Counted from the first letter of the stretch, positions 38,120-54,948 are shown. The stretch: 64,000 bases of DNA from Pseudomonadota bacterium (GCA_040390605.1 JAZJXZ010000017.1:34948-98947); one strand, 5' to 3'. The notes: generated by a model from the letters alone, not told the origin. A program made the numbers and translations.

Positions 38120-38123
38120 CGCC

Positions 38124-38402
38124 TCAACCCTTCGGGGTCAGCGAGCCAAAGCCCTTGGGCGTCTTGATGCGCGTGCAGCTGCCCTTGGCAACGTACTTCC
38201 AGGCGTCACCCTGATAGGCGACGCGACTGGTGCCGGCGCAGCTGGTGCCGGCACCGGCCTTGCAATCGTTCTTGCCGGCCAGGCTGATGCCATAGCATTT
38301 GTCCTTGCCGGGCTGCGGCGCGACCGGGCCGGCATGGGCCGCGGCGGCGCCGAGCGCCGACAGGACGGCGGCGGTGAGGGCGAGATTGACGGTCTTCATC
38401 AT
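38124..38402 (-). CDS. bufA: DUF2282 4-Cys secreted precursor peptide (BufA1-type bufferin)
   Basis: [24 protein letters not shown] | [68 protein letters not shown]. Sec signal plus four Cys. Its stop lies 4 nt from the DUF692 start. Confidence 0.85.
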
Positions 38403-38514
38403 GGTTCCTTTCGAAGGGGTGCTCCCTCTCGGGTGCGGCACGACATTCGCGTAAAACGCCGTCGGCGTCCGCTACCCGGACCGCATCGTTTCGATGCGCG
38501 CGGGTGATGGCGGC

Positions 38515-39660
38515 TCAGCCGGCAGCGGAGGTGTGGATCATCTCGCCGCCCATCGCCTCGTGCAGCACGAAACCCTCTAGCGGATCGACCTCGGCGCGCC
38601 ACGGCCCGGCTTCCAGCGTGCGCATCGTGTCGGCATAGCCGGCATCCCAGCGCGCGCGGATGCCCGCCGGGCTGAAGTCGATGTCCTTGCTGTGATCCTC
38701 GCAGGCCAGTGCCGGGGCGAGCAGGCGGATGACGTGCATGCGCGTCGGGCAGCCATAGGCGGCGAGCCCCGCCACCTCGGCCGACTGTCGCTTGTCCGCC
38801 GGTACCAGCGCCGACAATTCGGTGATCACATGGCGCAGCTTGTGAAGCTGGCGCTGGCGCTTGATATGGGTCGAGGCGCGGCTGGAATATTGCACGTCCT
38901 TCTGGCGGTTCATCACCTCCCAGATCGTTTCGGGCTCGGCCCCGTGCGGGTTCCAGATATGCACCGCATAGACCATCGAATCGCGCCGCGGATTGTCGTC
39001 GAACACCACCTCGACCGGCGTGTTCGAGAGGATGCCGCCGTCCCAATAGAGCTCGCCGTCGATGCGCACCGCGGGAAAGGCGGGCGGCAGCGCGCCCGAG
39101 GCCATTACGTGGCGCAGGTCGAGCGGCGTGTCGCGCGAATCGAAATAATGCATCTCGCTGGTCGTCACGCGCGAGGCACCGACGGTCAGCCGCACCGGGC
39201 CGGCATTGACCTGGTCGAAATCGATCAGGTCGGCGAGCGTCTTGCGTAGCGGCTCGACCGAATAATAGCCCGCGCCCTCCGCGCCCAATGTGCTGTGCGG
39301 GCTGACAAAGGCGCCGGCGTTGGGGGTGAAGAAGGCCGGTAGCCCGCCGACCACGGTCGACCAGTTGCGGAACATCGCCGAAAGCTGCGTCGGCAGCGCC
39401 CATTCGAAGGCGTGGCCATGTTCCATGCGGCGCCAGAATTCGCGCAGCCGCTCCATGCGCTCGTCGGCGCGACTACCGGCGATGATCGCGGCGTTGATCG
39501 CGCCGATCGAGGTGCCGATCACCCAGTCGGGCTCGACCCCGGCCTCGTGCAACGCCTGATAGACGCCGACCTGATAGGCACCGAGCGCGCCGCCGCCCTG
39601 GAGCACCAGCACCTGCTGGCCGTGGCGGCGTAGTTCGTCGTGAAGGGTAAGGCGAGACAT
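38515..39660 (-). CDS. patatin-like phospholipase
   Basis: Start MSRLTLHDEL, with AGGAGA 6 nt upstream. Oxyanion GGGALGAYQVG and nucleophile elbow GTSIGA are present. Confidence 0.85.
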   Translation of the reverse strand: MSRLTLHDELRRHGQQVLVLQGGGALGAYQVGVYQALHEAGVEPDWVIGTSIGAINAAIIAGSRADERMERLREFWRRMEHGHAFEWALPTQLSAMFRNWSTVVGGLPAFFTPNAGAFVSPHSTLGAEGAGYYSVEPLRKTLADLIDFDQVNAGPVRLTVGASRVTTSEMHYFDSRDTPLDLRHVMASGALPPAFPAVRIDGELYWDGGILSNTPVEVVFDDNPRRDSMVYAVHIWNPHGAEPETIWEVMNRQKDVQYSSRASTHIKRQRQLHKLRHVITELSALVPADKRQSAEVAGLAAYGCPTRMHVIRLLAPALACEDHSKDIDFSPAGIRARWDAGYADTMRTLEAGPWRAEVDPLEGFVLHEAMGGEMIHTSAAG

Positions 39661-41892: not shown

Positions 41893-42135
41893 GGGTGTCT
41901 CCTGGGAAGCTGTCGTTCCAAGGATGACCGTCCGGGGGCGCTGACTGAAATGCCGTTCCTGCATGGAAACCATGCGGACAATCGAATGTCCCCGCCGGCG
42001 GAACGCGCCTAAATTTCAGGTCGTCACGAGAAGCGGCCAGCTCCGGCCAAATCTCCTCCGCCACTGCCCTGGCACCCCGCGCCGGCCGCGCCGCCTCCCG
42101 TGACACGGTTTCATTTCACCAGAAGGACCATCGCC

Positions 42136-42582
42136 ATGAAGCTCAACCTACGCCTGACCGCGGCGCTCGCCGCCACCGCCACCGCCCTGATCGCCGCCCC
42201 GGCCTTTGCCGGCACCTGCCCCGCCGGCCGCATGGCCGCCAACCCGCTGACCGGTGCGGCGACCGCGCCGGTCGCGGTCACCGACGATGTCATCGGCTCG
42301 GTCGATCTCGGCAAGGAGATCAACGTCGATGGGCGCGACCTGCGCCTGCGCCGCCTCGTCGTTCAGCCGGGCGGCATCGTGCCGCTGCACAGCCATGCCG
42401 GCCGCCCTGCGCTGATCATCGTCGTGACCGGCGAGATGACCGAATATCGCAGCAGCTGCGCCGACCCGATCGTCCACCGCGCCGGCGAGGTAGCCAGCGA
42501 ATCCGGCGGTATCTCGCACTGGTGGAAGAACACCGGCAGCGTCGCTTCCGAACTGCTCTCGGCGGACGTCAAGGCGCGCTGA
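42136..42582 (+). CDS. secreted cupin-domain protein
   Basis: Signal peptide MKLNLRLTAALAATATALIAAPAFA. Cupin motif GGIVPLHSHAGRPALIIVVTGE. Confidence 0.65.
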   Translation: MKLNLRLTAALAATATALIAAPAFAGTCPAGRMAANPLTGAATAPVAVTDDVIGSVDLGKEINVDGRDLRLRRLVVQPGGIVPLHSHAGRPALIIVVTGEMTEYRSSCADPIVHRAGEVASESGGISHWWKNTGSVASELLSADVKAR

Positions 42583-42702
42583 AGCAGCGTCCGTCATGGA
42601 GGCGGCCGGTTCCCTGCCCCCGAAACCCGCCGCCTCCTCGCGCGGTGCCTGCAACCCCTGCGGGCACCGCGCACCCATGTTCAAATCAAGCGGGATCGTG
42701 AT

Positions 42703-43119
42703 GTGACAGATCCGTATCGCGTCGGCCTCGATGTGCTGGCGCAAACCGGTGCCGGCCAGGACACCCGGCGCAACCGCGTTGCCGAAATCGCGCCCGACTT
42801 CGCCCGCCTTGCCATCGGCTTTGCCTATGGCGAGATCTTCGCGCGGCCTGGACTCGACCTCAAGGAGCGCGAGCTCGCCGCCATCGCCGCGCATGCCGCG
42901 CTCGGCAGGGCCTCCGCGCAACTGCGCCAGCATGTCGAGGCTGCACTGCATCTCGGCTGGAGCCGCGCGGAGATCGTCGAGGTGCTGATCCAGACGGCGG
43001 TGCATGCCGGCCTTCCGGCCGCACTCGACGCCCTGTCAAATTGTCACGACCTGTTGGTCGAACGCAGTGGCTATTGCGCATCCTGCGAAAGCGATGCGCC
43101 GGATCGCGGCCAAACGTGA
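42703..43119 (+). CDS. carboxymuconolactone decarboxylase (AhpD-like) family protein
   Basis: GTG start. GLDLKERELAAIAAHAALGRASAQLRQHVEAALHLGWSRAEIVEVLIQTAVHAGLPAA is a CMD-domain pattern. Confidence 0.75.
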   Translation: MTDPYRVGLDVLAQTGAGQDTRRNRVAEIAPDFARLAIGFAYGEIFARPGLDLKERELAAIAAHAALGRASAQLRQHVEAALHLGWSRAEIVEVLIQTAVHAGLPAALDALSNCHDLLVERSGYCASCESDAPDRGQT

Positions 43120-43979
43120 CGCCGCGCCTCGCGCACGAACGCGCCGATCGCCGGTGAATGCGGCCGCCCGCGCACCGTGGCGAGGTAGATGGTCCGCTTA
43201 TAGCCCGGCTCGATCAGCGGTCGGATGACCAATTCCGGATCGGTGACGCAATATTCCGGGAAGAAGCCGAAGCCGAGCCCGGCCTTGATCATCTTCTGTA
43301 CCCATTCGTCGCGCGGTGAACTGAACACCTTCTTGGTGGTCACGCCCCGGCGCGCGAAATCCTCCGTCACGGTCTGGAACACCTCGCAATTGGTGCGCCC
43401 GACATAAGGCTCGCCATCGAGGTCCGCGACGCGGATCGCGTTCTTGCGCGCCCATGGATGGCCCGGCGGCAAGACGATGACGAAGCGCTCGGTGAACACC
43501 GGGACCTGGTGGAGCGAGTCGGGCAATTCCTCGGGCACGCCGATGATGCTGATCTGCAGGTCGCCCTTTTCCAGCGCAGCGATCATCGCCTGCGCCTCGC
43601 CATCGACCACGGTGACCTCGACATCGGGATGCGCGGCGCGAAAGCGCACGATCAGATCGGCGACGAGTTGCGGCCCGATCGTGCACATGGCGCCGATCGT
43701 CAGCGTGATGTTCTCGATCTTCTTCGCCGCTCTGGCGGCCTGACGCGCGGCCTGGGTCGATGCCTCGACGGTCTCGAGATAGGGCAGCATCATCCGGCCG
43801 AGCTCGGAGAGATGCGTGTTGTTGCGTTCGCGGTGGAACAGCGGACCGCCCAGCTCATGCTCGAGCTGCTGGATGGCGCGGGTCAGGGCGGGCTGGCTGA
43901 CATTGCAGCGTTCCGCCGCGCGCGTGAAATTGAGCGTCTCGGCCAGCGCGACGAAATAGCGGACCTGCTGCATTTCCAT
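43071..43979 (-). CDS. LysR family transcriptional regulator
   Basis: MEMQQVRYFVALAETLNFTRAAERCNVSQPALTRAIQQLE is a LysR HTH, followed by the substrate-binding domain. Confidence 0.9.
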   Translation of the reverse strand: MEMQQVRYFVALAETLNFTRAAERCNVSQPALTRAIQQLEHELGGPLFHRERNNTHLSELGRMMLPYLETVEASTQAARQAARAAKKIENITLTIGAMCTIGPQLVADLIVRFRAAHPDVEVTVVDGEAQAMIAALEKGDLQISIIGVPEELPDSLHQVPVFTERFVIVLPPGHPWARKNAIRVADLDGEPYVGRTNCEVFQTVTEDFARRGVTTKKVFSSPRDEWVQKMIKAGLGFGFFPEYCVTDPELVIRPLIEPGYKRTIYLATVRGRPHSPAIGAFVREARRHVWPRSGASLSQDAQ

Positions 43980-44060
43980 GATCGTCGCCTCCCCTCCGGC
44001 GCGCCCGTTTCGTTACCATCTCTCAACGATTTTTGCCAGCTTGCCGCTGCTGCGAGACGA

Positions 44061-45005
44061 TCAGGCCGCGACCCGAACCGCGCGCCGTTCGACCCGCCGC
44101 GCGAGCGTGATCGCGCCGGCGATCGACAGCGCCATCACCGACACCGCGACCCAGGCATAAGACAGCAGCAACGGCAGTCCGATCAGGATCAGCCCGTCAT
44201 TGCTGCCCGGCACCAGCATCGCGCCGACCCCCATCAAAGCGCCGCCGGCAGCGCAGCGCAGCACATCGCGCGCGCGCGGCGGCGTCGAGTTGAGCAGGCC
44301 GGCGATCCATCCCCCGGCGATCGCGCCGCCCAGCAGCGCCAGCACCATCGCCAGGCGCAGCGTCAGACGCGCCTCCATGCCATGCGCCAGCGCGGCGAGC
44401 GCGTCGGTATAGGCCCATGGCCCGACCGCCAGCAGCGTCGTCACGAAGGTCGCGGCGATCAGCAAGGTGGCGCGGTGCGGATGCCACAGATGCGCGAAGA
44501 AGCCGGGTGCGTGCGCCGCCTCGGCAAGCCGCCACATGATCGGCACGGCAATGGCGATAGCGACGATGCCGGCATGCGCGAATGGCGCGACATGCTGCGA
44601 TCCGGGCAACGCGGCAGCGCCGTGCAGCGGCACGAGACAGCCGAAATAGAAACCGACCGGCGTGGCCAGCCACGCCCATTGCCCCGAGCCGATCCTGGCG
44701 ATCGCACCGAACACGCAGGCGCGGTTGATCCAGGCGCCGAGGCCGAGCAGCACGCCGCCCGCCACCGTCGCGCCGCTCGGCGGATAACGCGCCGGGGACA
44801 TGGCGAACAAGCCGGCGAGCTGGGCCAGCGCGAGCAACCCGCCGACCCACAATGCCGCCTCGCCCAGCGCCAGCGCGCGCGTCGCGCGGCGCATCGTGAC
44901 GATCTCATCGACCGCCGCGACCATGCAGGTCGCGCCGCGCTGGATGGCGAGACCCATCAGCGCGGCGGACATCAGGGCGATGGCGGCGGCAGCCCAGCCG
45001 TACAT
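44061..45005 (-). CDS. YeeE/YedE-like polytopic membrane protein (putative sulfur-compound transporter)
   Basis: Start MYGWAAAAIALMSA. Repeated ...RGATCMVAAV... and ...NRACVFGAIA... Cys-containing helices as in YeeE/YedE. One-nucleotide overlap with the upstream gene. Confidence 0.55.
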   Translation of the reverse strand: MYGWAAAAIALMSAALMGLAIQRGATCMVAAVDEIVTMRRATRALALGEAALWVGGLLALAQLAGLFAMSPARYPPSGATVAGGVLLGLGAWINRACVFGAIARIGSGQWAWLATPVGFYFGCLVPLHGAAALPGSQHVAPFAHAGIVAIAIAVPIMWRLAEAAHAPGFFAHLWHPHRATLLIAATFVTTLLAVGPWAYTDALAALAHGMEARLTLRLAMVLALLGGAIAGGWIAGLLNSTPPRARDVLRCAAGGALMGVGAMLVPGSNDGLILIGLPLLLSYAWVAVSVMALSIAGAITLARRVERRAVRVAA

Positions 45006-45502
45006 CAGCGCGTCGCGGCGCCGGCGATCGAGGCGGCGACCTCGCTGGCCATCCTGAACTGCGCAGCGCGGTCGGTGATGCGATAGCGCCGTGCGATGAA
45101 GCCGAAATCGGTCCACGCCACCCACACCTGGCCGCTGGTGTCTTCCAGCACCAGCATGCGCACCGGCCAGTCGAGCCCGGCATAGGGATTGGACTGGAGA
45201 AACTGCACGCCGAGCGGCGGGTTGCCGAACAGCACCAGGGTCGAGCGGCGGATCTTGAGTCCCGCGCCCTCGCCAAGGCCGCTCTGGTCGATCGCGTCGA
45301 AGAAGCGGATGCCCTTGGCCGCGACATCGGCCTTGAGTTGCGCGACGGTCTGGTCGAAGCCGCTGGCGCTGCGCAGTTGCACGACGCCGTCGGCGGCGGC
45401 GACCGGCGTGGCGGTGGCGGCCCTGGTTCCGGCGGCGGTGGCGGGGGCGCCGGTGAGCGCGGCGACAGCGATGAGCGGCGCGAGGATAAGCGGATATTTC
45501 AT
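45005..45502 (-). CDS. secreted DUF302-domain protein
   Basis: Signal peptide MKYPLILAPLIAVAALTGAPATA. ...VLFGNPPLGVQFLQSNPYAGLDWPVRMLVLED is DUF302-like. GGAGA RBS. Confidence 0.65.
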   Translation of the reverse strand: MKYPLILAPLIAVAALTGAPATAAGTRAATATPVAAADGVVQLRSASGFDQTVAQLKADVAAKGIRFFDAIDQSGLGEGAGLKIRRSTLVLFGNPPLGVQFLQSNPYAGLDWPVRMLVLEDTSGQVWVAWTDFGFIARRYRITDRAAQFRMASEVAASIAGAATR

Positions 45503-45668
45503 ACTGGTCTCCTGTCGGCGAAGGTCGCGTTTGACAGGGCCGCTATCGCGAACGGCGGCGGGGGAGTGAAATCGGCTCTTGCTATGGTTTCGATGACCGG
45601 TGCCTATGATCGTCCCGCCGACGGCAACGATCATTCAGGAGCGCGAAGCGACCGGGTTCACGGTCCAG

Positions 45669-46427
45669 TCAATTGTCCGCGCAGCTGAAACCCGCGATGA
45701 GACCCTCGGACACCCACTGCGCCAGATATTGCCCCGCTTGCCCGACGCCGCGCTCTTCGCCCAGCCTGTCGACGAGTCGCGAACACAGTCCTTCGAACGA
45801 GACGCCGGACCGGACGAGGAGCAGGCACATCAGTTCCTGCGCCTCCGCGGTGCGAAAGTGCGATATGTGCCCTCGCCGCCAGACGATAACGGGCAAACTT
45901 TCCTCGAGATACTCGACTGGCGGCGGGACGTCGCCCGCATCGATGGCCGACCAGAGCGCGGCGGCGTTGGTCCATAGCGGTCGATGATCGAACGTTGGCG
46001 GGAGGTGCAAAACCGCCTTTGCCCAGTCGATGTCGCCAAGCTGGTCCATGCCGAGCTCGGTCGCATCGGGGCCGACGAATGCCTCGCCCAGCGCGCATTC
46101 GATCCACGCGAGTTCACCGACCTCCGGATCATCCTCGAAGGCGCTCGACAACGTCGCCGGAAAATCGCGCGCATAGGCGTCGAGCGTCCAGCTGCTCGGC
46201 GGAACGCGGTCGATGTGCGTGACGAGCGACTGCAGAAAGAGATCGCCCCCGAGCCACGCGCGGGTATGGGGAAAGGCTTCGTCGAGGCACGCAATAAGCT
46301 GCGCGCGATAGTTGTTCATATAGACATCGAGTCCTGCGGCGGCGCTCTCGCCGATCCGCCGGGCCGCCGACCGGTCCTCGTGGACCAGCCAGGCGCGGAC
46401 GTCGCGTTGCAGCGCCAGCAGGCTCAT
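45669..46427 (-). CDS. bufC: DUF2063 protein (BufC-type), second copy
   Basis: MSLLALQRDVRAWL...GLDVYMNNYRAQLIACLDEAFPHTRAWLGGDLF. ATGA overlap with the DUF692 stop. Confidence 0.8.
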   Translation of the reverse strand: MSLLALQRDVRAWLVHEDRSAARRIGESAAAGLDVYMNNYRAQLIACLDEAFPHTRAWLGGDLFLQSLVTHIDRVPPSSWTLDAYARDFPATLSSAFEDDPEVGELAWIECALGEAFVGPDATELGMDQLGDIDWAKAVLHLPPTFDHRPLWTNAAALWSAIDAGDVPPPVEYLEESLPVIVWRRGHISHFRTAEAQELMCLLLVRSGVSFEGLCSRLVDRLGEERGVGQAGQYLAQWVSEGLIAGFSCADN

Positions 46428-47254
46428 GCCGCCCTCTTCTCACCCGCACGCCCGATCCGCCGTGCGACGTCGAGTTCGGCGAGGAGGTCGGCGAGCGGCG
46501 GAATGTCGTCGTCGCGCTCGATCATCGTGGCGACCGGTCCGAGGCGTGGCAGCACATGGGCATAGAGATCCCACACCGATGCCGGAACCTCGCGATCGTG
46601 CGTATCGATCAGCAGGTGCTTGCCCGCGCTATGGCCGGCGAGGTGAATCTGGCGGACGCGGTCGTGCGGCAGGCCGTCCAGATAGGCGATCGCGTCGAAC
46701 CCGTGATTGGTCGCGCTGACGAAGACGTTGTTGACGTCGAGCAGCAGCCCGCAGCCTGTGCGTGCGCAGACCGCGTCGAGAAACTGCCACTCGGACATGT
46801 CGGCGGGCGCGAAGTCGATATAGCTGGAGGGGTTTTCGATCAGCATCTCGCGACGCAGCGCCTCCTGCGCCCGCGCGATATTGGCGCACACCACATCTAG
46901 CGCCTCGCGCGTGTAGGGCAGCGGCAGAAGATCGTGCGCGTTGAAGCCCTCGCTCCGGCTCCAGCTGAGATGATCAGAGACGAACAGCGGTTCGATCTCG
47001 TCGACCAGCGCGCGCAACCGCGCCAGATACGCCCCGTCCAATCCGTCGGCCGAGCCAAGCGACATCGAGACGCCGTGCAGCGCCACCGGATACCGCTGGC
47101 GCACATCGCGCAGAATCTGACGCGGTTTCCCGCCGTCGACCATGAAATTCTCGGAGATCACCTCGACGAAATCGACCGCCACACGGTGTTCGAGGAATTC
47201 CCGGTAGTGCGGCTTGCGAAGACCGAGCCCGAAGCCGGCAAAAGTAGCGCTCAT
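46424..47254 (-). CDS. bufB: DUF692 / MNIO family RiPP-modifying enzyme, second copy
   Basis: GFGLGLRKPHY...VDFVEVISENFM...VALHGVSMSLGS...LFVSDHLSW...IENPSSY...DVNNVFV...QIHLAGH. Confidence 0.85.
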   Translation of the reverse strand: MSATFAGFGLGLRKPHYREFLEHRVAVDFVEVISENFMVDGGKPRQILRDVRQRYPVALHGVSMSLGSADGLDGAYLARLRALVDEIEPLFVSDHLSWSRSEGFNAHDLLPLPYTREALDVVCANIARAQEALRREMLIENPSSYIDFAPADMSEWQFLDAVCARTGCGLLLDVNNVFVSATNHGFDAIAYLDGLPHDRVRQIHLAGHSAGKHLLIDTHDREVPASVWDLYAHVLPRLGPVATMIERDDDIPPLADLLAELDVARRIGRAGEKRAA

Positions 47255-47278
47255 GTCTGGCTTTTCCGAAAAGGGGGT

Positions 47279-47316
47279 GGGCCCGGCCGGTTGGGGGGGG
47301 GAGGGAGGCCGGGCCC
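47279..47316 (-). other. 10-bp perfect GC hairpin between precursor and enzyme genes
   Basis: GGGCCCGGCC (47279-88) pairs with GGCCGGGCCC (47307-16). The 18-nt loop contains a G9 run (47293-47301; C9 on the coding strand). Confidence 0.5.
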
Positions 47317-47323
47317 GAAGCGA

Positions 47324-47584
47324 TCAGTTCGGTGCGGTGGTGCTGCCGCCGGCGGCGGTGCAGGCCTTGAGCGCCATTTCCTTGAAGCCCTGACCCTTGC
47401 AGTCGTTCTGGCCCTTGCAATCATGGTTGCCCGACTTGCAGTCCGACTGGCCCTTGCAGCCGTTGACGCCGTAGCAATGGACCTTCGCCCCACCCTTGGC
47501 GACGGCCATGGTCGGGGCGACCGCGGTGATGGCGACAACGGCGGCGGCAGCGGCGAAGCTCACGCCGGTTCGGATCATGGTCAT
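47324..47584 (-). CDS. bufA: 6-Cys secreted precursor peptide (BufA2-type bufferin)
   Basis: MTMIRTGVSFAAAAAVVAITAVAPTMAVA | KGGAKVHCYGVNGCKGQSDCKSGNHDCKGQNDCKGQGFKEMALKACTAAGGSTTAPN. AGGAG lies 6 nt upstream. Six Cys, including a CKGQ-type repeat. Confidence 0.8.
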   Translation of the reverse strand: MTMIRTGVSFAAAAAVVAITAVAPTMAVAKGGAKVHCYGVNGCKGQSDCKSGNHDCKGQNDCKGQGFKEMALKACTAAGGSTTAPN

Positions 47585-47625
47585 TGCATACTCCTGAATT
47601 GAGATTGCCTGATTGGCTCTCCCGG

Positions 47626-47651
47626 TTCGGCGTAGGCGGCGCCCTGGTTAC
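47626..47651 (-). promoter_or_regulatory. ECF-type promoter TGTAACC-N16-CGAAC for the 6-Cys bufferin operon
   Basis: The minus strand reads tTGTAACC agggcgccgcctacgc CGAAC. It lies in the 80-nt gap between the nrsF stop and the bufA2 start. Confidence 0.7.
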
Positions 47652-47664
47652 AACGACCGCATCG

Positions 47665-48309
47665 TCACCAGCGCAGCAGGCGGGGGCCCAGCAGCGCGCC
47701 CAGCCCGGCGGCGAGCAAGATGCCCAACGAATACCAGGTGAGCACGAACAGCGCGGATACCTCCGGGCAATGCAGGCAATAGACCATGGCCGCGAAAGCA
47801 CCCGCGGCGAGCCCGGCAGCCGCGCCCGCAGCACGCAACCGCGTCGGCGCAAGGCGCCGGAACGACCAGAGCAAACCCACAAAGATCGGCATCGCCAGCG
47901 TGACCACGCGCCACGGACAATACATCCAGCTTTCGCCCAGCCACATTGCCAGCCATTCGCCACGCGGCGTTCGGACCAGTTCAACCGCGCCCACGCCCGC
48001 CAGAAGCAATACCGGCACGGCGACCACCCAGGCCCAGCGCAACCGCCCGCTATCCGGCCGGGCGAGCTGGACGGTCATCGCAAGCGCCGCGATCGACAGC
48101 GAAATGGTGTAGGCCCATTTCATCCAGAACGAGAAGCCGTGCATCGCGCTGCCGATATCCGGGCGCACACCCATCGCCAGCACCACATATATCAGGGACA
48201 CGACGGCGCCGCACAGGACGCCCGCGGTCAAGCGGCGGCTCACGGTGAACCGTCGGACCGGCGAAACCTCCGTCGAAAGGCGCGCGATCAGGTCTTCGGT
48301 GTTCATCAA
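47665..48309 (-). CDS. nrsF: NrsF (DUF1109) family anti-sigma factor, six-TM
   Basis: MMNTEDLIARLSTEVSPVRR... is followed by six hydrophobic segments with conserved Cys (MYCPW, YCLHCPE). ATGA overlap with the sigma gene. Confidence 0.8.
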   Translation of the reverse strand: MMNTEDLIARLSTEVSPVRRFTVSRRLTAGVLCGAVVSLIYVVLAMGVRPDIGSAMHGFSFWMKWAYTISLSIAALAMTVQLARPDSGRLRWAWVVAVPVLLLAGVGAVELVRTPRGEWLAMWLGESWMYCPWRVVTLAMPIFVGLLWSFRRLAPTRLRAAGAAAGLAAGAFAAMVYCLHCPEVSALFVLTWYSLGILLAAGLGALLGPRLLRW

Positions 48310-48842
48310 CCGCTCCCCTGGATGCGCGCCATCAACGACTTGAGCCCGCGATGCACTGACACCTTGACGTCGGATTCGCCCACACCGTTCGCCGCCGCCG
48401 CCTCCGCGACACTCAGGCCCTCGATCCGCGTCGCGCGGATCGCGCGCGCCTGTTTGGCCGGCAGGGTGTCCAGCAATTCCTCCACGTCGAGACGCGCGCT
48501 GGATGCCTTTTCAAAGTCTTCGGCGACCAGCACGTCTTCGAGGCCGTCGATCGGCTGCAGTCGTCGCACGCGGCGGAAATGGTCGATCATCTTGTAGCGG
48601 GCGATGGCGAACAACCAGGCGGTAAAGAGACGATCGCGATCATAGGTCGCCCGCTTGGTGTGAACGGCGATAAGCGTCTCTTGCACAAGGTCCTCGATAT
48701 CGTCTTCGCCACCATTCGCCCGGCGACGGTAATAGGCGCGAAGCAAGGGGACGAGAAGGCGCAGCAATGCGGCATGGTCGGCGGCATTGCCGTCGAGCCC
48801 ATTGATCATCAAACACCGCAAATCGTTCTCGCTTGCCCGCAT
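48306..48842 (-). CDS. sigF: ECF (sigma-70 family group IV) sigma factor, SigF-like
   Basis: Start MRASENDL, with GGGAG 5 nt upstream. Region 2 block EDLVQETLIAVHTKRATYD...FTAWLFAIARYKMIDHFRR, region 4 block ARAIRATRIEGLSVAEAAAANGVGESDVKVSVHRGLK. Confidence 0.9.
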   Translation of the reverse strand: MRASENDLRCLMINGLDGNAADHAALLRLLVPLLRAYYRRRANGGEDDIEDLVQETLIAVHTKRATYDRDRLFTAWLFAIARYKMIDHFRRVRRLQPIDGLEDVLVAEDFEKASSARLDVEELLDTLPAKQARAIRATRIEGLSVAEAAAANGVGESDVKVSVHRGLKSLMARIQGSG

Positions 48843-48862
48843 TCGCACTCCCTGCCTGCCGG

Positions 48863-48888
48863 TTCGACGGAACACGCCTAGAAGTTAC
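48863..48888 (-). promoter_or_regulatory. ECF-type promoter TGTAACT-N16-CGAAC upstream of sigF (autoregulation)
   Basis: The minus strand reads cTGTAACT tctaggcgtgttccgt CGAAC. The -10 element ends about 20 nt upstream of the ATG. Confidence 0.65.
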
Positions 48889-48931
48889 AGCGCGCAAGGC
48901 CAGACCGCCCAGGCATCGAAGCACGCATCGT

Positions 48932-48957
48932 GTAACCGGCGGCACGCAACGCGCGAA
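48932..48957 (+). promoter_or_regulatory. ECF-type promoter TGTAACC-N16-CGAAC for the orphan bufA1-doxX-HAD operon
   Basis: The plus strand reads gTGTAACC ggcggcacgcaacgcg CGAAC. It is back-to-back with the sigF promoter (the -35 elements are 43 bp apart). Confidence 0.7.
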
Positions 48958-49000
48958 CTGGGTCAGGTAGCCGGGGCATTCTTGTCTCCTTCCCGGCCGC

Positions 49001-49035
49001 CGCGCGACCCGGTGCCCCCCGTTCCGGGTCGCGCG
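49001..49035 (+). other. 12-bp perfect stem-loop in the roughly 100-nt leader of the orphan precursor gene
   Basis: CGCGCGACCCGG (49001-12), loop tgccccccgtt, CCGGGTCGCGCG (49024-35). No U-tract follows. Confidence 0.55.
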
Positions 49036-49064
49036 TCATCGAGGCATCATCGAAGGAAATTCAT

Positions 49065-49343
49065 ATGCGCAAGTCATATGCGAGCCTCGCGGCGGCGCTG
49101 GCGGTCACGACCGTCGGCGCGACCGTTGCCGCCAACGCCGCCGCCCAGACCCGGCCCGCAATGGAGAAATGCTACGGCATCGCCCGTGCGGGCAAGAACG
49201 ATTGCAAGGCCGGCGCCGGCACGAGCTGCGCCGGCACGTCGAAGGTCGACTATCAGGGCAACGCCTGGAAGCTCGTCAAGGCCGGCACCTGTGTCAAGGC
49301 CAGAACCCCGAAGGGCTTCGGCTCGCTAACGCCGAAATCGTGA
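49065..49343 (+). CDS. bufA: DUF2282 4-Cys secreted precursor peptide, second paralogue (BufA1-type)
   Basis: [27 protein letters not shown] | [65 protein letters not shown]. By hand alignment, 45 of 58 core positions are identical to the 38124-38402 peptide. Confidence 0.85.
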
Positions 49344-49349
49344 TCCGCT

Positions 49350-49376
49350 CGGCCGGGGCGTGACCCGCCCCGGCCG
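49350..49376 (+). other. 11-bp perfect GC hairpin immediately after the precursor stop
   Basis: CGGCCGGGGCG tgacc CGCCCCGGCCG. No U-tract. It lies between bufA1' and doxX'. Confidence 0.5.
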
Positions 49377-49399
49377 CAACCGTGCAACGGAGAACAGCC

Positions 49400-49858
49400 A
49401 TGACTTGGCCGATTGCCCCTGTCGGGCGAATCCTCGACCGCCTGTCCGCCGCGATGCCCGATGCAGCGCTGCTGCTCGCGGGCCGTCTCGGCATCGCCGC
49501 CGTCTTCTTTACCTCGGGGCGAACGAAGGTGGATGGCATCATCCACATCACCGACGGCACCTACGAACTCTTTCGCACGGAATATGTTCTGCCGCTCGTC
49601 CCGCCGGAAGTGGCCGCAGTGCTGGCGACCTGGTCGGAGCACGTCTTCTCCATCCTGCTCATCCTCGGGCTGCTGACGCGCCTTTCCGCGACGGCGCTGT
49701 TCGCCATGACGCTGACGATCGAGATCTTCGTCTATCCCGACGCCTGGCCGACGCATCTGAGCTGGGCGGCGATCCTGTTGCCGCTGATGTTCCGCGGCGG
49801 AGGCGGCTGGTCGCTCGATTGTCTGCTGCGCCGGCCCTCCGCGCCCGCCGCGCACTGA
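49400..49858 (+). CDS. DoxX family membrane protein, second paralogue
   Basis: The ATG at 49400 has GGAGA 6 nt upstream (GTG at 49382 is also possible). LLLAGRLGIAAVFFTSGRTKV...[16 protein letters not shown] parallels the 36089-36559 DoxX. Confidence 0.8.
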   Translation: MTWPIAPVGRILDRLSAAMPDAALLLAGRLGIAAVFFTSGRTKVDGIIHITDGTYELFRTEYVLPLVPPEVAAVLATWSEHVFSILLILGLLTRLSATALFAMTLTIEIFVYPDAWPTHLSWAAILLPLMFRGGGGWSLDCLLRRPSAPAAH

Positions 49859-49880
49859 TTCCCGGGCGATTGGAAGAACG

Positions 49881-50654
49881 ATGTCGCACCATTCGATCGA
49901 CCGTCGCACCGTGCTGGCCGGGCTGGCCGGGCTGGCCGGAGCGATGGCGACGCCGGCGCTCGGCCAGTCGGCCGCGCCGGCCATCAAGGCGATCGCCTTC
50001 GACGGACTCGCCATCTTCGACCCGCGCGGGGTTGCCGTCAGGGCGCGGGCGTTGCTGGGCCAGCGGGGCGACGCCCTCGCCTCGCAGTGGTCGGCAAAGC
50101 TCTTCGGCTATAGCTGGCTCGAAACGGCCGCCGGCCGATATGCCGATTTCCGGACGCTCGCCGACGCCGCGCTCCGCTATGTCGCCGAGACGATGAAGGT
50201 GCCGCTCGACGCGAGAACGCGGGAGCAGCTGGTCGGCGCATATGATGCGCTCGACCTGTGGCCGGATGTCAAACCGGCGCTGGCCAGGCTCCACACCGCC
50301 GGCGTGCGCCTCGCCTTCCTGTCCAACCTCGGCGTCGAAACGTTGAACGCGAACATGTCGGCCAACGGCATCGCCGGATATTTCGAAGCGCCGCTCAGCA
50401 CCGACGCCGTCGGCCGCTTCAAACCCGCTCCGGAAGCCTATGCCATGGCGCTGCGCGCATTCGGGCTTCCGCGCGCGCATATCGGCTTCGCGGCATTCGG
50501 CGGATGGGATGCCGCCGGGGCGACATGGTTCGGCTACCGCACCGCCTGGGTCAATCGCTTCGACCTTCCCGTAGAACCGCTCGATACGCGACCGGCGATC
50601 ACAAGCCGCGGCATGGAAGGCGTTCTCGCCCTCGCGGGCATCGCGCCGGCCTGA
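49881..50654 (+). CDS. HAD superfamily hydrolase (type II haloacid dehalogenase-like) with twin-arginine signal
   Basis: MSHHSIDRRTVLAGLAGLAGAMATPALG is a Tat-like signal. IKAIAFDGLAIFD is HAD motif I with the nucleophile Asp. ...LAFLSNLG... and ...GGWDAAGA... follow. Starts 22 nt after doxX'. Confidence 0.7.
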   Translation: MSHHSIDRRTVLAGLAGLAGAMATPALGQSAAPAIKAIAFDGLAIFDPRGVAVRARALLGQRGDALASQWSAKLFGYSWLETAAGRYADFRTLADAALRYVAETMKVPLDARTREQLVGAYDALDLWPDVKPALARLHTAGVRLAFLSNLGVETLNANMSANGIAGYFEAPLSTDAVGRFKPAPEAYAMALRAFGLPRAHIGFAAFGGWDAAGATWFGYRTAWVNRFDLPVEPLDTRPAITSRGMEGVLALAGIAPA

Positions 50655-50697
50655 GATTCAGGCGGTCATGCTCGGCATGCCCAAAAGCTTACCCACC

Positions 50698-51219
50698 TTA
50701 TCGGCCTCGTTTCAGCATAGCGATCGCCTGAGCGCCGCCCCAGTCGATGGCGCGCGGCACGCGGGCGACCTCCCGGCCGGATCGATCGAAGATCACCGAA
50801 TATGGCGTGCCGAGCGCGCCATAGCGCCTGACCTGCGCAATGGGCGAAAAGCCCAGGTGGAGATGGGGATATTGGCCGGCGAACGCTGTGCGAGCGTCAT
50901 TGCGGTCGGCGTCGACCGACGCGGCGATGACGACGATGTCGCGCCGGCGCGCGGCCAGGCGATCGAGACTGGGCAGTTCCTCCCGACAAGGACCGCACCA
51001 ACTCGCCCAGAAGTTCACGACGAGAACCTTTCCACGCGCGCTACGCTCCAGATATCGCGAACCGTCGTCCAGCTCGATCTCGGGGAGCTGCGCCGAACCT
51101 GTACGTGCCGCCGCTGCCGACAAGACCGGCGGGCCGCCTGCCGCGACGATTGGTTGCCCAATCGCCGCGGCAGCCGACAACGCAAACGCCGCAACAGTCA
51201 AAGGGCGGTGGGCGCTCAA
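50698..51219 (-). CDS. TlpA-like periplasmic thiol:disulfide oxidoreductase
   Basis: Signal or anchor sequence, then VLVVNFWASWCGPCREELPSL (thioredoxin CxxC). The TTG start forms a TTGA overlap with the YHS gene stop; start uncertain. Confidence 0.8.
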   Translation of the reverse strand: MSAHRPLTVAAFALSAAAAIGQPIVAAGGPPVLSAAAARTGSAQLPEIELDDGSRYLERSARGKVLVVNFWASWCGPCREELPSLDRLAARRRDIVVIAASVDADRNDARTAFAGQYPHLHLGFSPIAQVRRYGALGTPYSVIFDRSGREVARVPRAIDWGGAQAIAMLKRGR

Positions 51220-51707
51220 AAGGCCTTGTCCTTCACGCTCGGCCAGTTTGCGCGCGCCTTGCCGACAATCCCGGGCGTGTCCTTATTGAAGATCGCGAGC
51301 GCGCGGGGGCCGTTGTTCAGATACAGCTTGCCGTTCACCACCTTGCCGGTCCGCGGATCGACGTCGACCTTCTCGCCGAACGCCGCGCCGGTGGCACAGA
51401 AGCCGCCAAATTCCGGAATGTACTTGCGCGGGTTGGCAAGGAAGGTGCGACGATGCGCAGCGGTGGCAAACAGGTATCGCGCTCCACCATAGGTCGCGGA
51501 TAACGCCGGCATGCCCGGCGTCGGTTTGCCGCTGTCGAAATAGGCGATCGGGTCGAAGCCGCCGAGCGCCACACCGCGCTCGTCGAGATTGACCTGCGAC
51601 GTCGATCCCTTGACGCCGGCAATGGCCGGCGACGCGGCGATCGGAGCGACAGCTTGAGCCAGGATGATGAACGAGGCCGCAATCGCGCCTCTCAACGATT
51701 TGTGCAT
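51216..51707 (-). CDS. secreted YHS-domain protein
   Basis: Signal peptide MHKSLRGAIAASFIILAQAVAPIAA. GGFDPIAYFDSGKP...YGGARYLFATAAHRRTFLANPRKYIPEFGGFC is YHS-like. Confidence 0.7.
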   Translation of the reverse strand: MHKSLRGAIAASFIILAQAVAPIAASPAIAGVKGSTSQVNLDERGVALGGFDPIAYFDSGKPTPGMPALSATYGGARYLFATAAHRRTFLANPRKYIPEFGGFCATGAAFGEKVDVDPRTGKVVNGKLYLNNGPRALAIFNKDTPGIVGKARANWPSVKDKAF

Positions 51708-51740
51708 GGTGGGAGCTCCTCTGTTTCGTGACCTCCCGGG

Positions 51741-51766
51741 TTCGCTGCTCGCGAGCCGATGGTTAC
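51741..51766 (-). promoter_or_regulatory. ECF-type promoter TGTAACC-N16-CGAAC upstream of the YHS-TlpA operon
   Basis: The minus strand reads tTGTAACC atcggctcgcgagcag CGAAC. The -10 element ends about 33 nt upstream of the YHS ATG. Confidence 0.65.
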
Positions 51767-51869
51767 AAAAGCTCGGGCAGCCCGACCAATTTCATTGTCG
51801 CTGACAGCGCCTCGCGAAATCGGCCTGCATCAGGTCGAGTTGCGCCAGCGCCCGGCCCGCCCGCAACCA

Positions 51870-52592
51870 TCAGTCGCGCGTTTCTCCGCCACCCTGACAG
51901 ATCGCCTTGAACCCCGCCGCCATGAAGGTCGCCATGTGCCGGCGGATCGCGGCGAAGTCGTCGGACGAGCACAGCCCGTGCGACAGTTCGTCGAGCCGGC
52001 CGGTGCGCGCCATATTGTGGGTCATCGCCCCGGACAGGAAGTGATAGCCCCAGAAGATTCGTTCCTCGTCGCAGTCGGGCATGGCCTTCTTCAGCAGCTC
52101 GATCAGCGCGATGCCGACAGGGTTGAAGTATTTCGTCATCTTGCCGGCGCCCCAGCCGGCGGCGCTGTTGGCCTGGGCGCTGATCTTGCCGATCGCCGCC
52201 CAGTAATCCGGGTCGTCCTGATGGAGCTTGAGATCGGGGTCGATCCAGGCGTGCAGCGCGCCCTCGACCGTGACATTGTCGCCGGCCTCCTCGGCATAAC
52301 GCCGCAGCGCCTCGAGCCGCCCCCGCGTGGAGGCGGGCACCTTGCGCGCCCACACCGCTTCGTAGATGCTTTCCTTGCCGTTGAAATGGTAGTGGATCAG
52401 CGTCGAGCTGACGCCGACGCGCGCGGCGACCTGCTTCAGCGTGAAGCCGTGATAGCCATATTCCGCGAACAGCTCCTCGGCGGCGTCGAGGATACGCTCG
52501 ATCGACGCCTCGCGGGCGCGCTCCTTGTGCTTCTTCGCGCGGGGGCGCTCGGGCGGCGCGTCGCCCGCCGCCGGGACCGGGTGCTTGCTCAT
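51870..52592 (-). CDS. TetR/AcrR family transcriptional regulator
   Basis: Start MSKHPVPAAG. ILDAAEELFAEYGYHGFTLKQVAARVGVSSTLIHYHFNGKESIY is TetR_N. The upstream part of the ORF is junk. Confidence 0.85.
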   Translation of the reverse strand: MSKHPVPAAGDAPPERPRAKKHKERAREASIERILDAAEELFAEYGYHGFTLKQVAARVGVSSTLIHYHFNGKESIYEAVWARKVPASTRGRLEALRRYAEEAGDNVTVEGALHAWIDPDLKLHQDDPDYWAAIGKISAQANSAAGWGAGKMTKYFNPVGIALIELLKKAMPDCDEERIFWGYHFLSGAMTHNMARTGRLDELSHGLCSSDDFAAIRRHMATFMAAGFKAICQGGGETRD

Positions 52593-52650
52593 TGTCGCGA
52601 CGGTGCCCTCCTCTACCCGGAGCGTCAACGTCGCGCCCCCGGCTCCGTCT

Positions 52651-54948
52651 TCAAAACCCGTAACCGACCCGCACGCCGAAGGTGCGCGGGCGCAGGATGG
52701 CGTAGCGGCTGTAGACGAAGGATTCGGGGTGGACATAGGTGGTCGCCCGGCTGTTGCCGAGATTCTCGACATAGAAGGTGGTGCTGAACTTGCCGATCCG
52801 GATGCCGGTCTGAACGTTGACATAGGTGTAGGTGTCGGACGGCGCATAGAGCGCGCTCGCCACGCCCGGCTTGCCCGGGACATTGGGGAAGCCGTTGGGG
52901 AAGGATCCGACATGCTCGATCTGGAAGCTGGTGAAGCCGCTTGCCCCGCTGCCCAGGCTATAGCCGTAGCTGCCGAAGAAGGCGCCCTGCAGGTGCGGAG
53001 CGGCGAGGCGCGCGCCCTTTACCGCGCCGGAGATCGCGGCCTGCTGCGCAGTGATGTCGGTGACCTTGGAATCGTTGATCGAGCCGTTGAGGCCGAAGGT
53101 CAGGCCGCGCGTCGGGGTCAGCGTGATCTCGGCCTCGATCCCCTTGCTCACCGCGCCGGCGATGTTGGTGGCGAACTGGATCGAGTCCGACTGGCGGTTG
53201 GCCTGCACCTGGATGTTGCGCCAGGCGATATAATAGGCCGCGAGATTGACGGTCAGCTTGCCGTCGAGGAAGCGGCCCTTGGCGCCGACCTCGTAATTGG
53301 TGAGATTATCCGATCCCGCGCCGGCCGGAATGACCAGATCGGTGGGATCGACCGTGCTCACGCTGCCGGCACGCCCGTTATAGACCGGCGTGCGGTAGCC
53401 GGTGGAGACCGTGCCGTAGAGCGTCAGGTCGTGCGATGGCTGATAGTTCACGCTCGCCTTCCACGACGCCTTCGAAGCGCTCGGGTAGCGGGTGTGCGTC
53501 GCCGCGGTGGGCACCTGGGCCAGCGGCCCGGAGATGCCGAACAGCGCATAGGTGAAATAGGCCGAGTTGAACCCGGGGAAGGTGTCCACTGTGCCGCCAT
53601 ATTTGCCCCAGCGAATGCCGCCGGACACGGCAAGCTGCGACGTGGCATGCCAGGTGACATCGCCGAACCCGGCCAGCTCATAGGTACGCGTATCGCTGGG
53701 AAAGGTGACGAAGGTGCCGTCCGCGGGCAGGCCGGTGATGCCGCGCGCGGCAAGGAACGCGGGGGTCGATGTCTCGCGTCCGTCGAGATAGAGATCGCGG
53801 TGGAGATAATAGGCGCCGACCGTCCAGTCGATCTTGCCGCCCGGGTTGGAGGATAGACGCGTCTCCTGCACGGAGGTCTTCCAGATGCCGTGGTCGAACA
53901 GATAGAAGGGAATGGCCTTGTTGATCGGCACCGTGGCGCTGGCGAAAGTGCCGGTCAGGTCGACGTCGAACTGGCCGTCCTGATAGCCATAGCTGGTCGA
54001 GTTGGTGAGGTGCGCGAAGTCCATGCCATAGTCGATCGTCGCGCTGTAGAGCTGGGTCTTCGAGGTGTAGAGATCTGGGATGGTGGTGTAGCGCTTGCGG
54101 TCGCCCAGCGACGGGGTGGTCAGCGAGGCGTCCTCGGGATGGCTGTTCTCGTAGATGCCGGTCAGGCGGATGCTCAGCGCCTCGCTCGGCTTCCATAACA
54201 GGCTGGCGCGACCGCCCCAGTCGCTCAGCGTGTTGGCGTTCTTCACGCCGGTGCCAACATTGTCGATAAAGCCTTCCTCATGGCGGTAGAAACCGACCAC
54301 GCGCAGGCCGAGCGTGTCGCTCGCCAGCGGCACGTTGACCATGCCGTTGTAGCGCTGGCGGATGCCCCCGCCATCGGGCGTCACGCCGATATCGGCCAGC
54401 GCCGAGGCGTCGCTCTTCGTCAGGTCCGGCGCCTGGGTCAGGATGCGTAGCGCGCCCGACAGCGAACCCGAGCCGAACAGCGTGCCCTGCGGGCCGCGCA
54501 GGAACTCGACCCGCTCGATATCGTAGAGATTGGGGTCGAGCGTGACCGAATTGCCGATCGTGGTGAGCGGCAGCTCGTCGAGATAGACAGTGGTGCTGCT
54601 TTGCAAACCGGCCTGATAGCCGTTGGTCGAGATGCCGCGTGTGGTGACGCTGACATTGTTGGCACTGCGCTGGTCGAGCACCACGCCCGGGGTTTCGCGC
54701 GCGATGCCCTCGAAGCCGACGATGCCTTTCTGGGTCAGCTGTTCCTGGCTGAAGGCGGTGACGCTCATCGGCACGTCCTGCAGCCGCTCGCTGCGCCGCG
54801 TCGCGGTGACGATGACGTCGTTGGGATCGCCCGCGTCCTGCGCGTTGGCGGCGGGAGCGGCCGGGGCGGCGGAGCCGGTCTGCGCGGTGGCGGGCGCGGC
54901 GGCGGCGATCAGCGCCAGCAGCGACGATGTATAAATCAGCTGTTTCAT
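52651..54948 (-). CDS. TonB-dependent receptor
   Basis: Start MKQLIYTSSLLALIAAAAPATAQ, with GAGGAGAGGGA upstream. Plug region DVIVTATRR. Terminal ...RVGYGF. Confidence 0.9.
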   Translation of the reverse strand: MKQLIYTSSLLALIAAAAPATAQTGSAAPAAPAANAQDAGDPNDVIVTATRRSERLQDVPMSVTAFSQEQLTQKGIVGFEGIARETPGVVLDQRSANNVSVTTRGISTNGYQAGLQSSTTVYLDELPLTTIGNSVTLDPNLYDIERVEFLRGPQGTLFGSGSLSGALRILTQAPDLTKSDASALADIGVTPDGGGIRQRYNGMVNVPLASDTLGLRVVGFYRHEEGFIDNVGTGVKNANTLSDWGGRASLLWKPSEALSIRLTGIYENSHPEDASLTTPSLGDRKRYTTIPDLYTSKTQLYSATIDYGMDFAHLTNSTSYGYQDGQFDVDLTGTFASATVPINKAIPFYLFDHGIWKTSVQETRLSSNPGGKIDWTVGAYYLHRDLYLDGRETSTPAFLAARGITGLPADGTFVTFPSDTRTYELAGFGDVTWHATSQLAVSGGIRWGKYGGTVDTFPGFNSAYFTYALFGISGPLAQVPTAATHTRYPSASKASWKASVNYQPSHDLTLYGTVSTGYRTPVYNGRAGSVSTVDPTDLVIPAGAGSDNLTNYEVGAKGRFLDGKLTVNLAAYYIAWRNIQVQANRQSDSIQFATNIAGAVSKGIEAEITLTPTRGLTFGLNGSINDSKVTDITAQQAAISGAVKGARLAAPHLQGAFFGSYGYSLGSGASGFTSFQIEHVGSFPNGFPNVPGKPGVASALYAPSDTYTYVNVQTGIRIGKFSTTFYVENLGNSRATTYVHPESFVYSRYAILRPRTFGVRVGYGF

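Follow-up and report, generated by a model that had tools for sequence, protein, structure and literature searches.

Probable promoter sites of the sigF/bufferin locus

The 64-kb stretch of Pseudomonadota bacterium DNA analyzed here (GCA_040390605.1 JAZJXZ010000017.1:34948-98947; hereafter the window) carries a group of bufferin and periplasmic redox genes around sigF-nrsF, a gene pair encoding an extracytoplasmic function (ECF) sigma factor and a membrane anti-sigma factor. An initial annotation of this DNA had noticed four equally spaced copies of the bipartite sequence TGTAACY-N16-CGAAC and had proposed them as promoters of a compact SigF/NrsF regulon. A search of both strands of the whole window returned exactly four matches, at 47625-47652 (-), 48862-48889 (-), 48931-48958 (+), and 51740-51767 (-), and no match in any of 100 dinucleotide-preserving shuffles. 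The coordinates in the annotation are those of the GTAAC...CGAA core, and its statement that none of the other GTAAC occurrences it had checked has CGAA at this spacing was borne out: the nine-base core GTAAC-N17-CGAA found the same four sites only, with 0.08 expected. Relaxing the search gave no sites with one mismatch and three with two mismatches, compared with 2.95 expected by chance, and when the spacer was varied from 8 to 25 nt, the 16-nt spacer gave four matches and every other length none or one. With a weight matrix trained on other genomes alone, the window being excluded, the four sites reached 22.4-26.9 bits, 14 bits clear of the runner-up in the window (8.1 bits). The four 16-nt spacers have no sequence in common, and the sites are thus not copies of a repeat element.

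As annotated, all four sites are intergenic and each is oriented toward a gene, the measured distance from the end of CGAA to the start codon being 19 nt for sigF (48842), 41 nt for bufA2 (47584), 107 nt for bufA1 (49065), and 33 nt for the YHS gene (51707). The sigF site (48862-48889, minus strand; 22.4 bits) comprises a -35 box TGTAACT at 48889-48883 and, after the 16-nt spacer, a -10 box CGAAC at 48866-48862; a GGGAG Shine-Dalgarno sequence lies between the -10 box and the sigF ATG, and the site would drive sigF-nrsF, giving autoregulation. Its -35 box stands back-to-back with that of the divergent bufA1 site, 41 bp away, which is the arrangement that had been described. The bufA1 site (48931-48958, plus strand; -35 TGTAACC at 48931-48937, -10 CGAAC at 48954-48958; 23.1 bits) would serve bufA1-doxX and probably also the haloacid dehalogenase-like (HAD) gene that follows. 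The bufA2 site (47625-47652, minus strand; -35 TGTAACC at 47652-47646, -10 CGAAC at 47629-47625; 26.9 bits) lies within the 80 nt that separate the nrsF stop codon from the beginning of bufA2 and would drive a predicted bufA2-bufB-bufC operon, while the site before the YHS gene (51740-51767, minus strand; -35 TGTAACC at 51767-51761, -10 CGAAC at 51744-51740; 23.4 bits) would drive a predicted YHS-tlpA operon. A scan of 44800-52200 for sigma-70 promoters and terminators found no sigma-70-like promoters and one terminator-like site. At 51773-51785 (-), a terminator-like hairpin belonging to the upstream TetR-family gene has a T-run that overlaps the -35 TGTAACC of the YHS promoter, which suggests that this promoter is insulated from read-through.

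Genes around the sites

Profile matches in Pfam and NCBIfam agreed with the earlier gene calls (ECF sigma, NrsF, BufA2, BufA1, YHS, and a TlpA-like redoxin). SigF (178 amino acids; 48306-48842, minus strand) matches Sigma70_r2 (PF04542) and Sigma70_r4_2 (PF08281), contains sigma-70 regions 2 and 4 only, and falls in the NCBIfam PRK12539 subfamily (189.5 bits against a cutoff of 171). The ATG of nrsF overlaps the sigF stop codon (TGATG), and its product, a membrane anti-sigma factor of 213 amino acids (47665-48306, minus strand), matches PF06532 NrsF with 251 bits over positions 1-204 of the 204 in the profile. Cysteines C130 and C180, which correspond to C131 and C181 of the Caulobacter protein, are invariant in an alignment of 15 sphingomonad sequences, as is C177. 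NrsF homologues place the window in Sphingomonas, with matches from named species 71-78% identical.

Further along the minus strand lie bufA2, encoding a six-Cys bufferin precursor with a signal peptide (47324-47584; NF050166 BufA2, 101 bits against a cutoff of 60); bufB, encoding the multinuclear non-haem iron oxidative enzyme (MNIO) that serves as bufferin maturase (46424-47254; NF050167, 384.8 bits against a cutoff of 310; PF05114, 372 bits); and bufC, encoding a DUF2063 partner protein (45669-46427; PF09836, 59 bits), after which comes a DUF302 gene. On the plus strand, bufA1 (49065-49343; PF10048, 85 bits) encodes a DUF2282 four-Cys bufferin precursor and is followed by the bufD-like doxX (49400-49858; PF07681, 60.6 bits) and, 22 nt past doxX, by a gene for a type II HAD protein with a twin-arginine-type N-terminus (49881-50654; TIGR01428, 163 bits). 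An HAD gene follows doxX in 4 of 81 loci, and here the two are probably co-transcribed.

Converging on bufA1-doxX-HAD is a minus-strand pair. Its first gene (51216-51707) encodes a secreted, single-Cys homologue of YHS-domain (seleno)proteins (NF041384, 114.9 bits against a cutoff of 70); selenoprotein members of this family bear a GxU motif, at whose position the protein has GFC (residues 102-104), with Cys104 invariant in 16 homologues. The start of the second gene, tlpA (50698-51219), overlaps the YHS stop, and its product is a periplasmic thioredoxin-fold protein with a WCGPC sequence and matches to Pfam Redoxin, AhpC-TSA, and Thioredoxin. It reached 64.2 bits with the equivalog NF047696 (rhizobial thiol:disulfide interchange protein), below the cutoff of 230, and is therefore described as TlpA-like and not as a TlpA equivalog.

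Conservation of the sites in Sphingomonadales

The comparative set comprised 80 Sphingomonadales loci centered on nrsF with 10-kb flanks (1.47 Mb); individual loci are denoted by L numbers. In this set GTAAC[CT]-N16-CGAA occurred 184 times, and the same half-sites at each other spacer from 8 to 25 nt occurred 0-7 times. Once the four sites of the window are included, the next gene downstream of the 188 matches was sigF in 61 cases, bufA2 in 58, bufA1 in 56, a YHS gene in 2, nrsF in 1, and another gene in 10, so that 175 of the 188 stand upstream of sigF, bufA2, or bufA1 in the correct orientation. Position was conserved along with sequence, the start codon lying at a median of 20 nt from the -10 box for sigF, 43.5 nt for bufA2 (range 38-51 nt), and 100 nt for bufA1. 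The exact motif was present upstream of sigF in 60 of 80 loci, of bufA2 in 57 of 66, and of bufA1 in 55 of 69; with at most one mismatch at N16 these numbers rose to 73 of 80, 66 of 66, and 68 of 69, respectively, and neighboring spacers gave almost none. The sole variants were G at position 6 of the -35 box and a CGTA -10 box, from which we derive the working rule TGTAAC(C/G/T)-N16-CG(A/T)A, a comparatively validated rule for reading SigF regulons in sphingomonad genomes.

The second variant was distributed in a particular manner. In six genomes (L035, L038, L066, L069, L071, and L076) every SigF-type promoter found has CGTA, a concerted change from CGAA that is as expected if one factor reads all the sites; seven other genomes carry CGAA and CGTA boxes mixed. 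SigF of the six CGTA genomes has the region 2 substitutions K84R, M85L, and F78Y, which may reflect co-evolution of specificity or shared ancestry, as the six genomes are possibly one clade. Given this possible single clade and the seven mixed-box genomes, we dropped the assignment of these residues as determinants of SigF specificity.

In relatives the motif also precedes genes that appear to be accessory regulon members and to encode periplasmic thiol proteins. In at least four loci without bufA1 at the sigF-divergent position (including L040, L054, L057, and L080) a divergent motif at about position 9400 precedes genes for DUF1223-like secreted proteins (VVELFQSQGCSSCPPA...), and in L007, likewise without bufA1 there, the motif at 4940 precedes a gene for a small thioredoxin-like protein.

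Identity with the published ECF16 promoter

The motif of the window, including the copy upstream of the sigma gene itself, equals the experimentally mapped consensus of ECF group 16. In Caulobacter the sigmaF-binding sequence is GTAACC-N16-CGAA, as the initial annotation had stated; rapid amplification of cDNA 5' ends (5'-RACE) placed it before CC3254 (bufA1) and CC2907 (bufA2), and primer extension placed it before sigF (Kohler et al. 2012; PMC3511200). The sequence tGTAACc-N16-CGAA was proposed as the group consensus (PMC3420878; PMC8315932) and was confirmed in Bradyrhizobium by primer extension, with transcription starting 6 bp past the -10 box (PMC3420878), and in Brucella by 5'-RACE (PMC8315932). 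In these ECF16 systems the sigma gene is followed by that of a DUF1109/NrsF anti-sigma factor and the operon is autoregulated; mutation of the two conserved cysteines of the anti-sigma factor (C131/C181 in Caulobacter, C129/C179 in OsrA and AbcS) derepresses the regulon. A 2026 study of Cupriavidus transcription start sites gives the ECF16 consensus as -35 AATTCG and -10 GGTTAC (PMC13492112). Read on the opposite strand, these are CGAATT and GTAACC, which may explain why no ECF16 motif was reported there upstream of rpoQ or of the gig (bufferin) operon (PMC13492112).

Among the closest described counterparts is the SigF-NrsF regulon of Caulobacter crescentus/vibrioides (PMC3511200; PMC11626156; PMC8224329). 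It shares with the window the GTAACC-N16-CGAA consensus common to its promoters, a sigF-nrsF operon with its own SigF-type promoter, a two-Cys NrsF, the divergent arrangement of sigF and bufA1, and its targets, namely a DUF2282 bufferin gene (bufA1) with doxX and a six-Cys bufferin gene (bufA2) with bufB and bufC. The two differ in layout and in content. In Caulobacter each precursor has a dedicated maturase: bufA1 is accompanied by bufB1C1D1, and buf2 stands at a different locus. In the window bufA2-bufB-bufC directly continues sigF-nrsF in the same direction, and bufA1-doxX is without a maturase of its own. The Caulobacter regulon includes msrPQ (yedYZ) and no YHS or TlpA gene; the window has YHS-tlpA, with no msrPQ seen in its 64 kb. 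The long structured bufA1 leader described below is not among the Caulobacter features described in these papers, a comparison made by description only.

Other ECF16 systems (Bradyrhizobium EcfF-OsrA, Brucella BcrS-AbcS, Sinorhizobium RpoE7-EcfR7, and Azospira SigF-NrsF) also resemble the window in having the gene for a six-helix DUF1109/NrsF anti-sigma factor immediately downstream of the sigma gene, a consensus of the tGTAACc-N16-CGAA type, and autoregulation. Their regulons are small sets of periplasmic redox and metal-protection genes, and their reported inducers are H2O2 or HOCl. With the exception of RpoE7, whose main targets are orthologues of Caulobacter CC3254-CC3257, a bufferin operon, these regulons center on methionine sulfoxide reductases and methionine-rich scavenger peptides, in contrast to the bufferins and YHS-TlpA of the window. 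The regulon is accordingly of a known kind, an ECF16 SigF/NrsF pair controlling bufferin genes, and its core will not surprise a specialist; orthologous to a well-studied system, it chiefly demonstrates that the promoter code carries over to Sphingomonadales. What is new is modest and consists of the YHS-TlpA target, the sphingomonad layout with a probably shared maturase, and a leader RNA present in no RNA family database.

YHS-tlpA as a recurrent predicted target

Comparison of the genes downstream of the fourth site indicates that YHS-TlpA is a recurrent SigF-type target and one new to the described regulons compared here: the pair was not among the published regulons of the Caulobacter, Bradyrhizobium, Brucella, and Sinorhizobium type, and a literature search that combined ECF sigma factors with YHS or TlpA returned nothing relevant. 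Among 12 independent loci with close YHS homologues, nine had the promoter upstream of the YHS gene. The only other locus with YHS-tlpA within 10 kb of nrsF is L029, from a Stakelama genome assembled from a metagenome, in which the pair is inverted relative to the window and the promoter is kept 47 nt upstream. The closest homologues in metagenome loci have the motif with one mismatch (TGTAACC-N16-CGTA in L081 and L083; GTAACG-N16-CGAA in L082), and the YHS gene of L083 has a sigF homologue (62% identity) as its immediate divergent neighbor. Four loci found by exact protein look-up (L161, from S. oligophenolica, L162, L164, and L166) have GTAACC-N16-CGAA ending 30-75 nt before the YHS gene; three of these have a redoxin/TlpA gene after it, and none has nrsF within 4 kb.

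A TlpA-like gene is paired with YHS in L029, L081, L161, L162, and L164, and the HAD gene adjoins the promoter-YHS-tlpA unit in L029, L081, and L164. In the metagenome scan the exact motif stood before no YHS gene at all; the matches were for the most part distant homologues (35-52% identity), none of which had the promoter, and only the nearest homologues proved informative. Six matches with an N14 spacer at metagenome YHS genes proved to be conserved coding sequence inside the YHS gene and were rejected as promoters. The redox-active residue of the YHS protein and its thioredoxin-fold partner suggest that the two are probably a periplasmic thiol/copper redox pair. Together with the DUF1223-like and thioredoxin-like proteins of relatives, this pair would tie uncharacterized periplasmic thiol proteins to the copper/bufferin stress response.

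Operon layout and extent of the regulon

The order bufC-bufB-bufA2 ← P ← nrsF-sigF ← P | P → bufA1-doxX, where P marks a promoter, is the standard sphingomonad layout. Among 81 loci, bufA2, bufB, and bufC were present in 66-67 and bufA1-doxX in 69-70, with doxX after bufA1 in 69. The description of bufA1 as an orphan in the initial annotation was therefore not upheld, since bufA1-doxX beside sigF is normal for Sphingomonadales. The components are those of the Buf1/Buf2 clusters known for bufferins, which are ribosomally synthesized and post-translationally modified peptides (RiPPs) characterized, once mature, by copper binding and by conversion of Cys to thiooxazole: signal-peptide precursors BufA1 (DUF2282) and BufA2 (six Cys), the MNIO BufB, the DUF2063 protein BufC, and DoxX (PMC11626156; PMC12452194). 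A 2025 bufferin survey found sigma and NrsF genes with Buf1 clusters and not with Buf2, whereas in sphingomonads sigF-nrsF lies directly before bufA2BC in about 65 of 81 loci. As the bufA1 unit has no maturase of its own, BufA1 is probably modified by the same BufB/BufC as BufA2, so that, unlike in known bufferin clusters, one BufB/BufC pair appears to serve two precursor types on two SigF promoters. The shared enzymes would probably thus receive two precursor classes from separate promoters, one of them by way of a structured leader RNA.

Further members of the regulon probably lie elsewhere in the genome, beyond the 64 kb. In relatives YHS-TlpA often stands away from sigF with its promoter, on contigs other than that of nrsF in L161-L166, and other genes there bear the motif. 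Within the window, the fifth-best match to the weight matrix, TGGAACC-N16-CGAAA at 38928-38955 (8.1 bits), is located inside a patatin-like gene, about 525 nt upstream of a second bufferin operon, and may represent either a degenerate site or the target of another ECF sigma factor.

A proposed mechanism and its alternatives

The identity of the motif with the ECF16 consensus, the adjacent ECF sigma and NrsF genes, and the spacing-specific conservation in 80 loci support the SigF/NrsF promoter reading proposed at the outset. The conservation and positions of the sites were recorded across about 90 loci. We put a probability of roughly 0.9 on the four sites being promoters read by RNA polymerase with the ECF16-type SigF encoded between them, and the concerted change to CGTA at all promoters of six genomes is as a single factor would predict. 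We infer a SigF-dependent mechanism, together with its inducing signal, from the homologous systems of Caulobacter (SigF/NrsF), Bradyrhizobium (EcfF/OsrA), and Brucella (BcrS/AbcS). In the unstressed cell, the six-helix anti-sigma factor NrsF would tether SigF to the membrane. Oxidants, copper, or other thiol-reactive metals would act on NrsF, probably via the periplasm-facing C130/C180, and SigF would be freed. Its region 4 would then contact TGTAACY as the -35 element and its region 2 CGAA(C) as the -10 element, the 16-nt spacer presumably being obligatory, and transcripts would begin about 6 nt downstream of the -10 box. The four units sigF-nrsF, bufA2-bufB-bufC, bufA1-doxX(-HAD), and YHS-tlpA would be induced together; the sigF promoter would amplify its own output, and the co-expressed NrsF would provide built-in negative feedback.

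Several observations weigh against this model or limit its reach. The related S. meliloti RpoE7 does not respond to H2O2, Cd, or chromate. NrsF of the window scored 148.3 bits with the equivalog NF042994 (Caulobacter NrsF orthologue), below the cutoff of 300, and is therefore a member at the level of the family and not at that of orthologue of the Caulobacter protein. The second complete bufferin operon, bufA1-bufB-bufC-doxX at 36089-38402 (-), lies some 10 kb from sigF, and the gap upstream of it (38403-38514) lacks a SigF-type promoter; hence not every bufferin gene in the window is under this promoter class. Three of the 12 loci with close YHS homologues (L084-L086) have no motif upstream.

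Of the explanations that compete with SigF, the one that survives best, although we consider it improbable, is that another ECF sigma factor, whose gene lies in some other part of the genome, reads the sites alone or with SigF; a cross-talking ECF16 paralogue could be such a factor. Bradyrhizobium has two ECF16 paralogues, EcfF and EcfS, for which cross-talk was suggested (PMC3420878); in L166 a gene for an ECF sigma of 196 amino acids, without an adjoining NrsF gene, lies just upstream of the motif-bearing YHS gene; and our view is limited to 64 kb of the genome. Set against this, the window contains no second sigF-like gene, the motif precedes the local sigF in 73 of 80 loci, such autoregulation being a hallmark of a cognate pair, and the change from CGAA to CGTA goes with the substitutions in region 2 of the local SigF. 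Still less credible is an operator for a DNA-binding regulator in place of a promoter. BufC might appear to be a candidate, as Pfam describes DUF2063 as a "putative DNA-binding domain" and NGO1945 is reported to regulate msrAB in Neisseria (cited in PMC3511200), but BufC is now assigned as the RiPP recognition partner of BufB. The motif, moreover, is asymmetric, with neither dyad nor direct-repeat symmetry; its strict orientation to the gene and fixed 16-nt spacer of free sequence are the geometry of a promoter; and in Caulobacter, Bradyrhizobium, and Brucella, transcripts mapped by 5'-RACE or primer extension begin shortly after motifs identical to this one. That the four matches are due to chance, composition, or dispersed repeat copies, for which only the high G+C content of the window speaks, is refuted by the empty shuffles, the unrelated spacers, the spacer-specific excess of 184 matches over 0-7, and the constant position of the sites relative to orthologous genes.

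A structured leader RNA upstream of bufA1

The long interval between the bufA1 promoter and the bufA1 start codon is visibly conserved, the leader being 88-117 nt long in most loci. In the window the structured 5' leader spans 48958-49054 on the plus strand (covariance model match of 64.8 bits, E = 1.4e-8) and is predicted to form three helices, all on the same strand: hairpin H1, which pairs 48967-48975 with 48992-49000 and has a CU-rich loop (...GCCUCC...); the GC-rich, 12-bp hairpin H2, which pairs 49001-49012 with 49024-49035; and helix P3, which pairs the H1 loop (48983-48988) with a GA-rich tail (49041-49046; ...GGAGGC...) and thereby crosses H1.

Covariation supports the hairpins. H1 and H2 were specified by hand and evaluated on a MAFFT alignment of 40 leaders, in which 85.9% of H1 and H2 cells were paired, compared with 37-45% when the partners were slid by 1-3 columns. 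Two-sided changes occurred in 15 of 21 pairs, compared with 7.5 in shuffles, none of 500 shuffles reaching 15. RNAalifold on the plain MAFFT leader alignment recovered part of H2 only. A covariance model of H1 and H2 matched 48 of 81 sources, exactly once per locus and each time within the bufA1 leader, with nine of the 48 matched loci outside the seed alignment, and gave no match in 385 kb of YHS loci. G-U pairs were more frequent than A-C mismatches (37 against 17), which weakly favors the sense strand as the one that folds.

For P3, the register of the tail varies between sequences in both alignments, and the pairing was evaluated by energy in place of a column-wise pair count, with hairpin boundaries taken from the alignment. 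Pairing of the loop with its own tail averaged -10.6 kcal/mol, compared with -8.8 with the tails of other genomes and -5.5 with shuffled tails, and none of 10,000 permutations reached the observed value; a repeat on 48 sequences gave -11.6 compared with -9.8 kcal/mol, again with none of 10,000 permutations. An earlier version of the test, in which 4580 of 5000 permutations were as good, used invalid boundaries because the hairpin-2 finder absorbed the outer helix. Across genomes P3 joins a CCUCC-like loop to a GGAGG-like tail. Compensatory variants of the two strands include CCAGCCUCCUU/AAGGAGGCUGA, GCCCUCU/AGAGGGC, and CUGCGCCC/GGGCGCGG.

The three helices may form together as a pseudoknot, or H1 and P3 may alternate as a switch. 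In Rfam 15 there was no match at E ≤ 1 in 48958-49064, the sole match in 44000-53000 being an unrelated one of 19 bits at 45500-45539, and the leader may be a new cis-regulatory element. If so, it could be a ligand- or metal-responsive element or a switch of translation or stability, and it would add post-transcriptional control of precursor production on top of SigF. That the regulon has both of two undescribed layers, the YHS/TlpA-like pair as a conserved SigF target forming a thiol/copper redox module beside the bufferins and a pseudoknotted bufA1 leader acting as a new cis-regulatory RNA, is a joint proposal we advance tentatively, judging it somewhat more likely to fail in one part than to hold in both.

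Two smaller features of the locus were also observed. In L162 (3279-8186) the gene order is DUF302 - YHS - TlpA - Sulf_transp - LysR - CMD - cupin. In the window, cupin, CMD, LysR, Sulf_transp, and DUF302 genes occupy 42100-45502, and YHS-tlpA is found at 50698-51707 on the far side of the sigF/bufferin block, so that this block appears to sit inside a sulfur/redox gene island. Between bufA2 and bufB, at 47279-47316 (-), lies a GC-rich hairpin, GGGCCCGGCC...GGCCGGGCCC, followed by CCCCCUUUUC; it resembles a partial terminator or attenuator, which would shift the transcript balance from maturase toward precursor.

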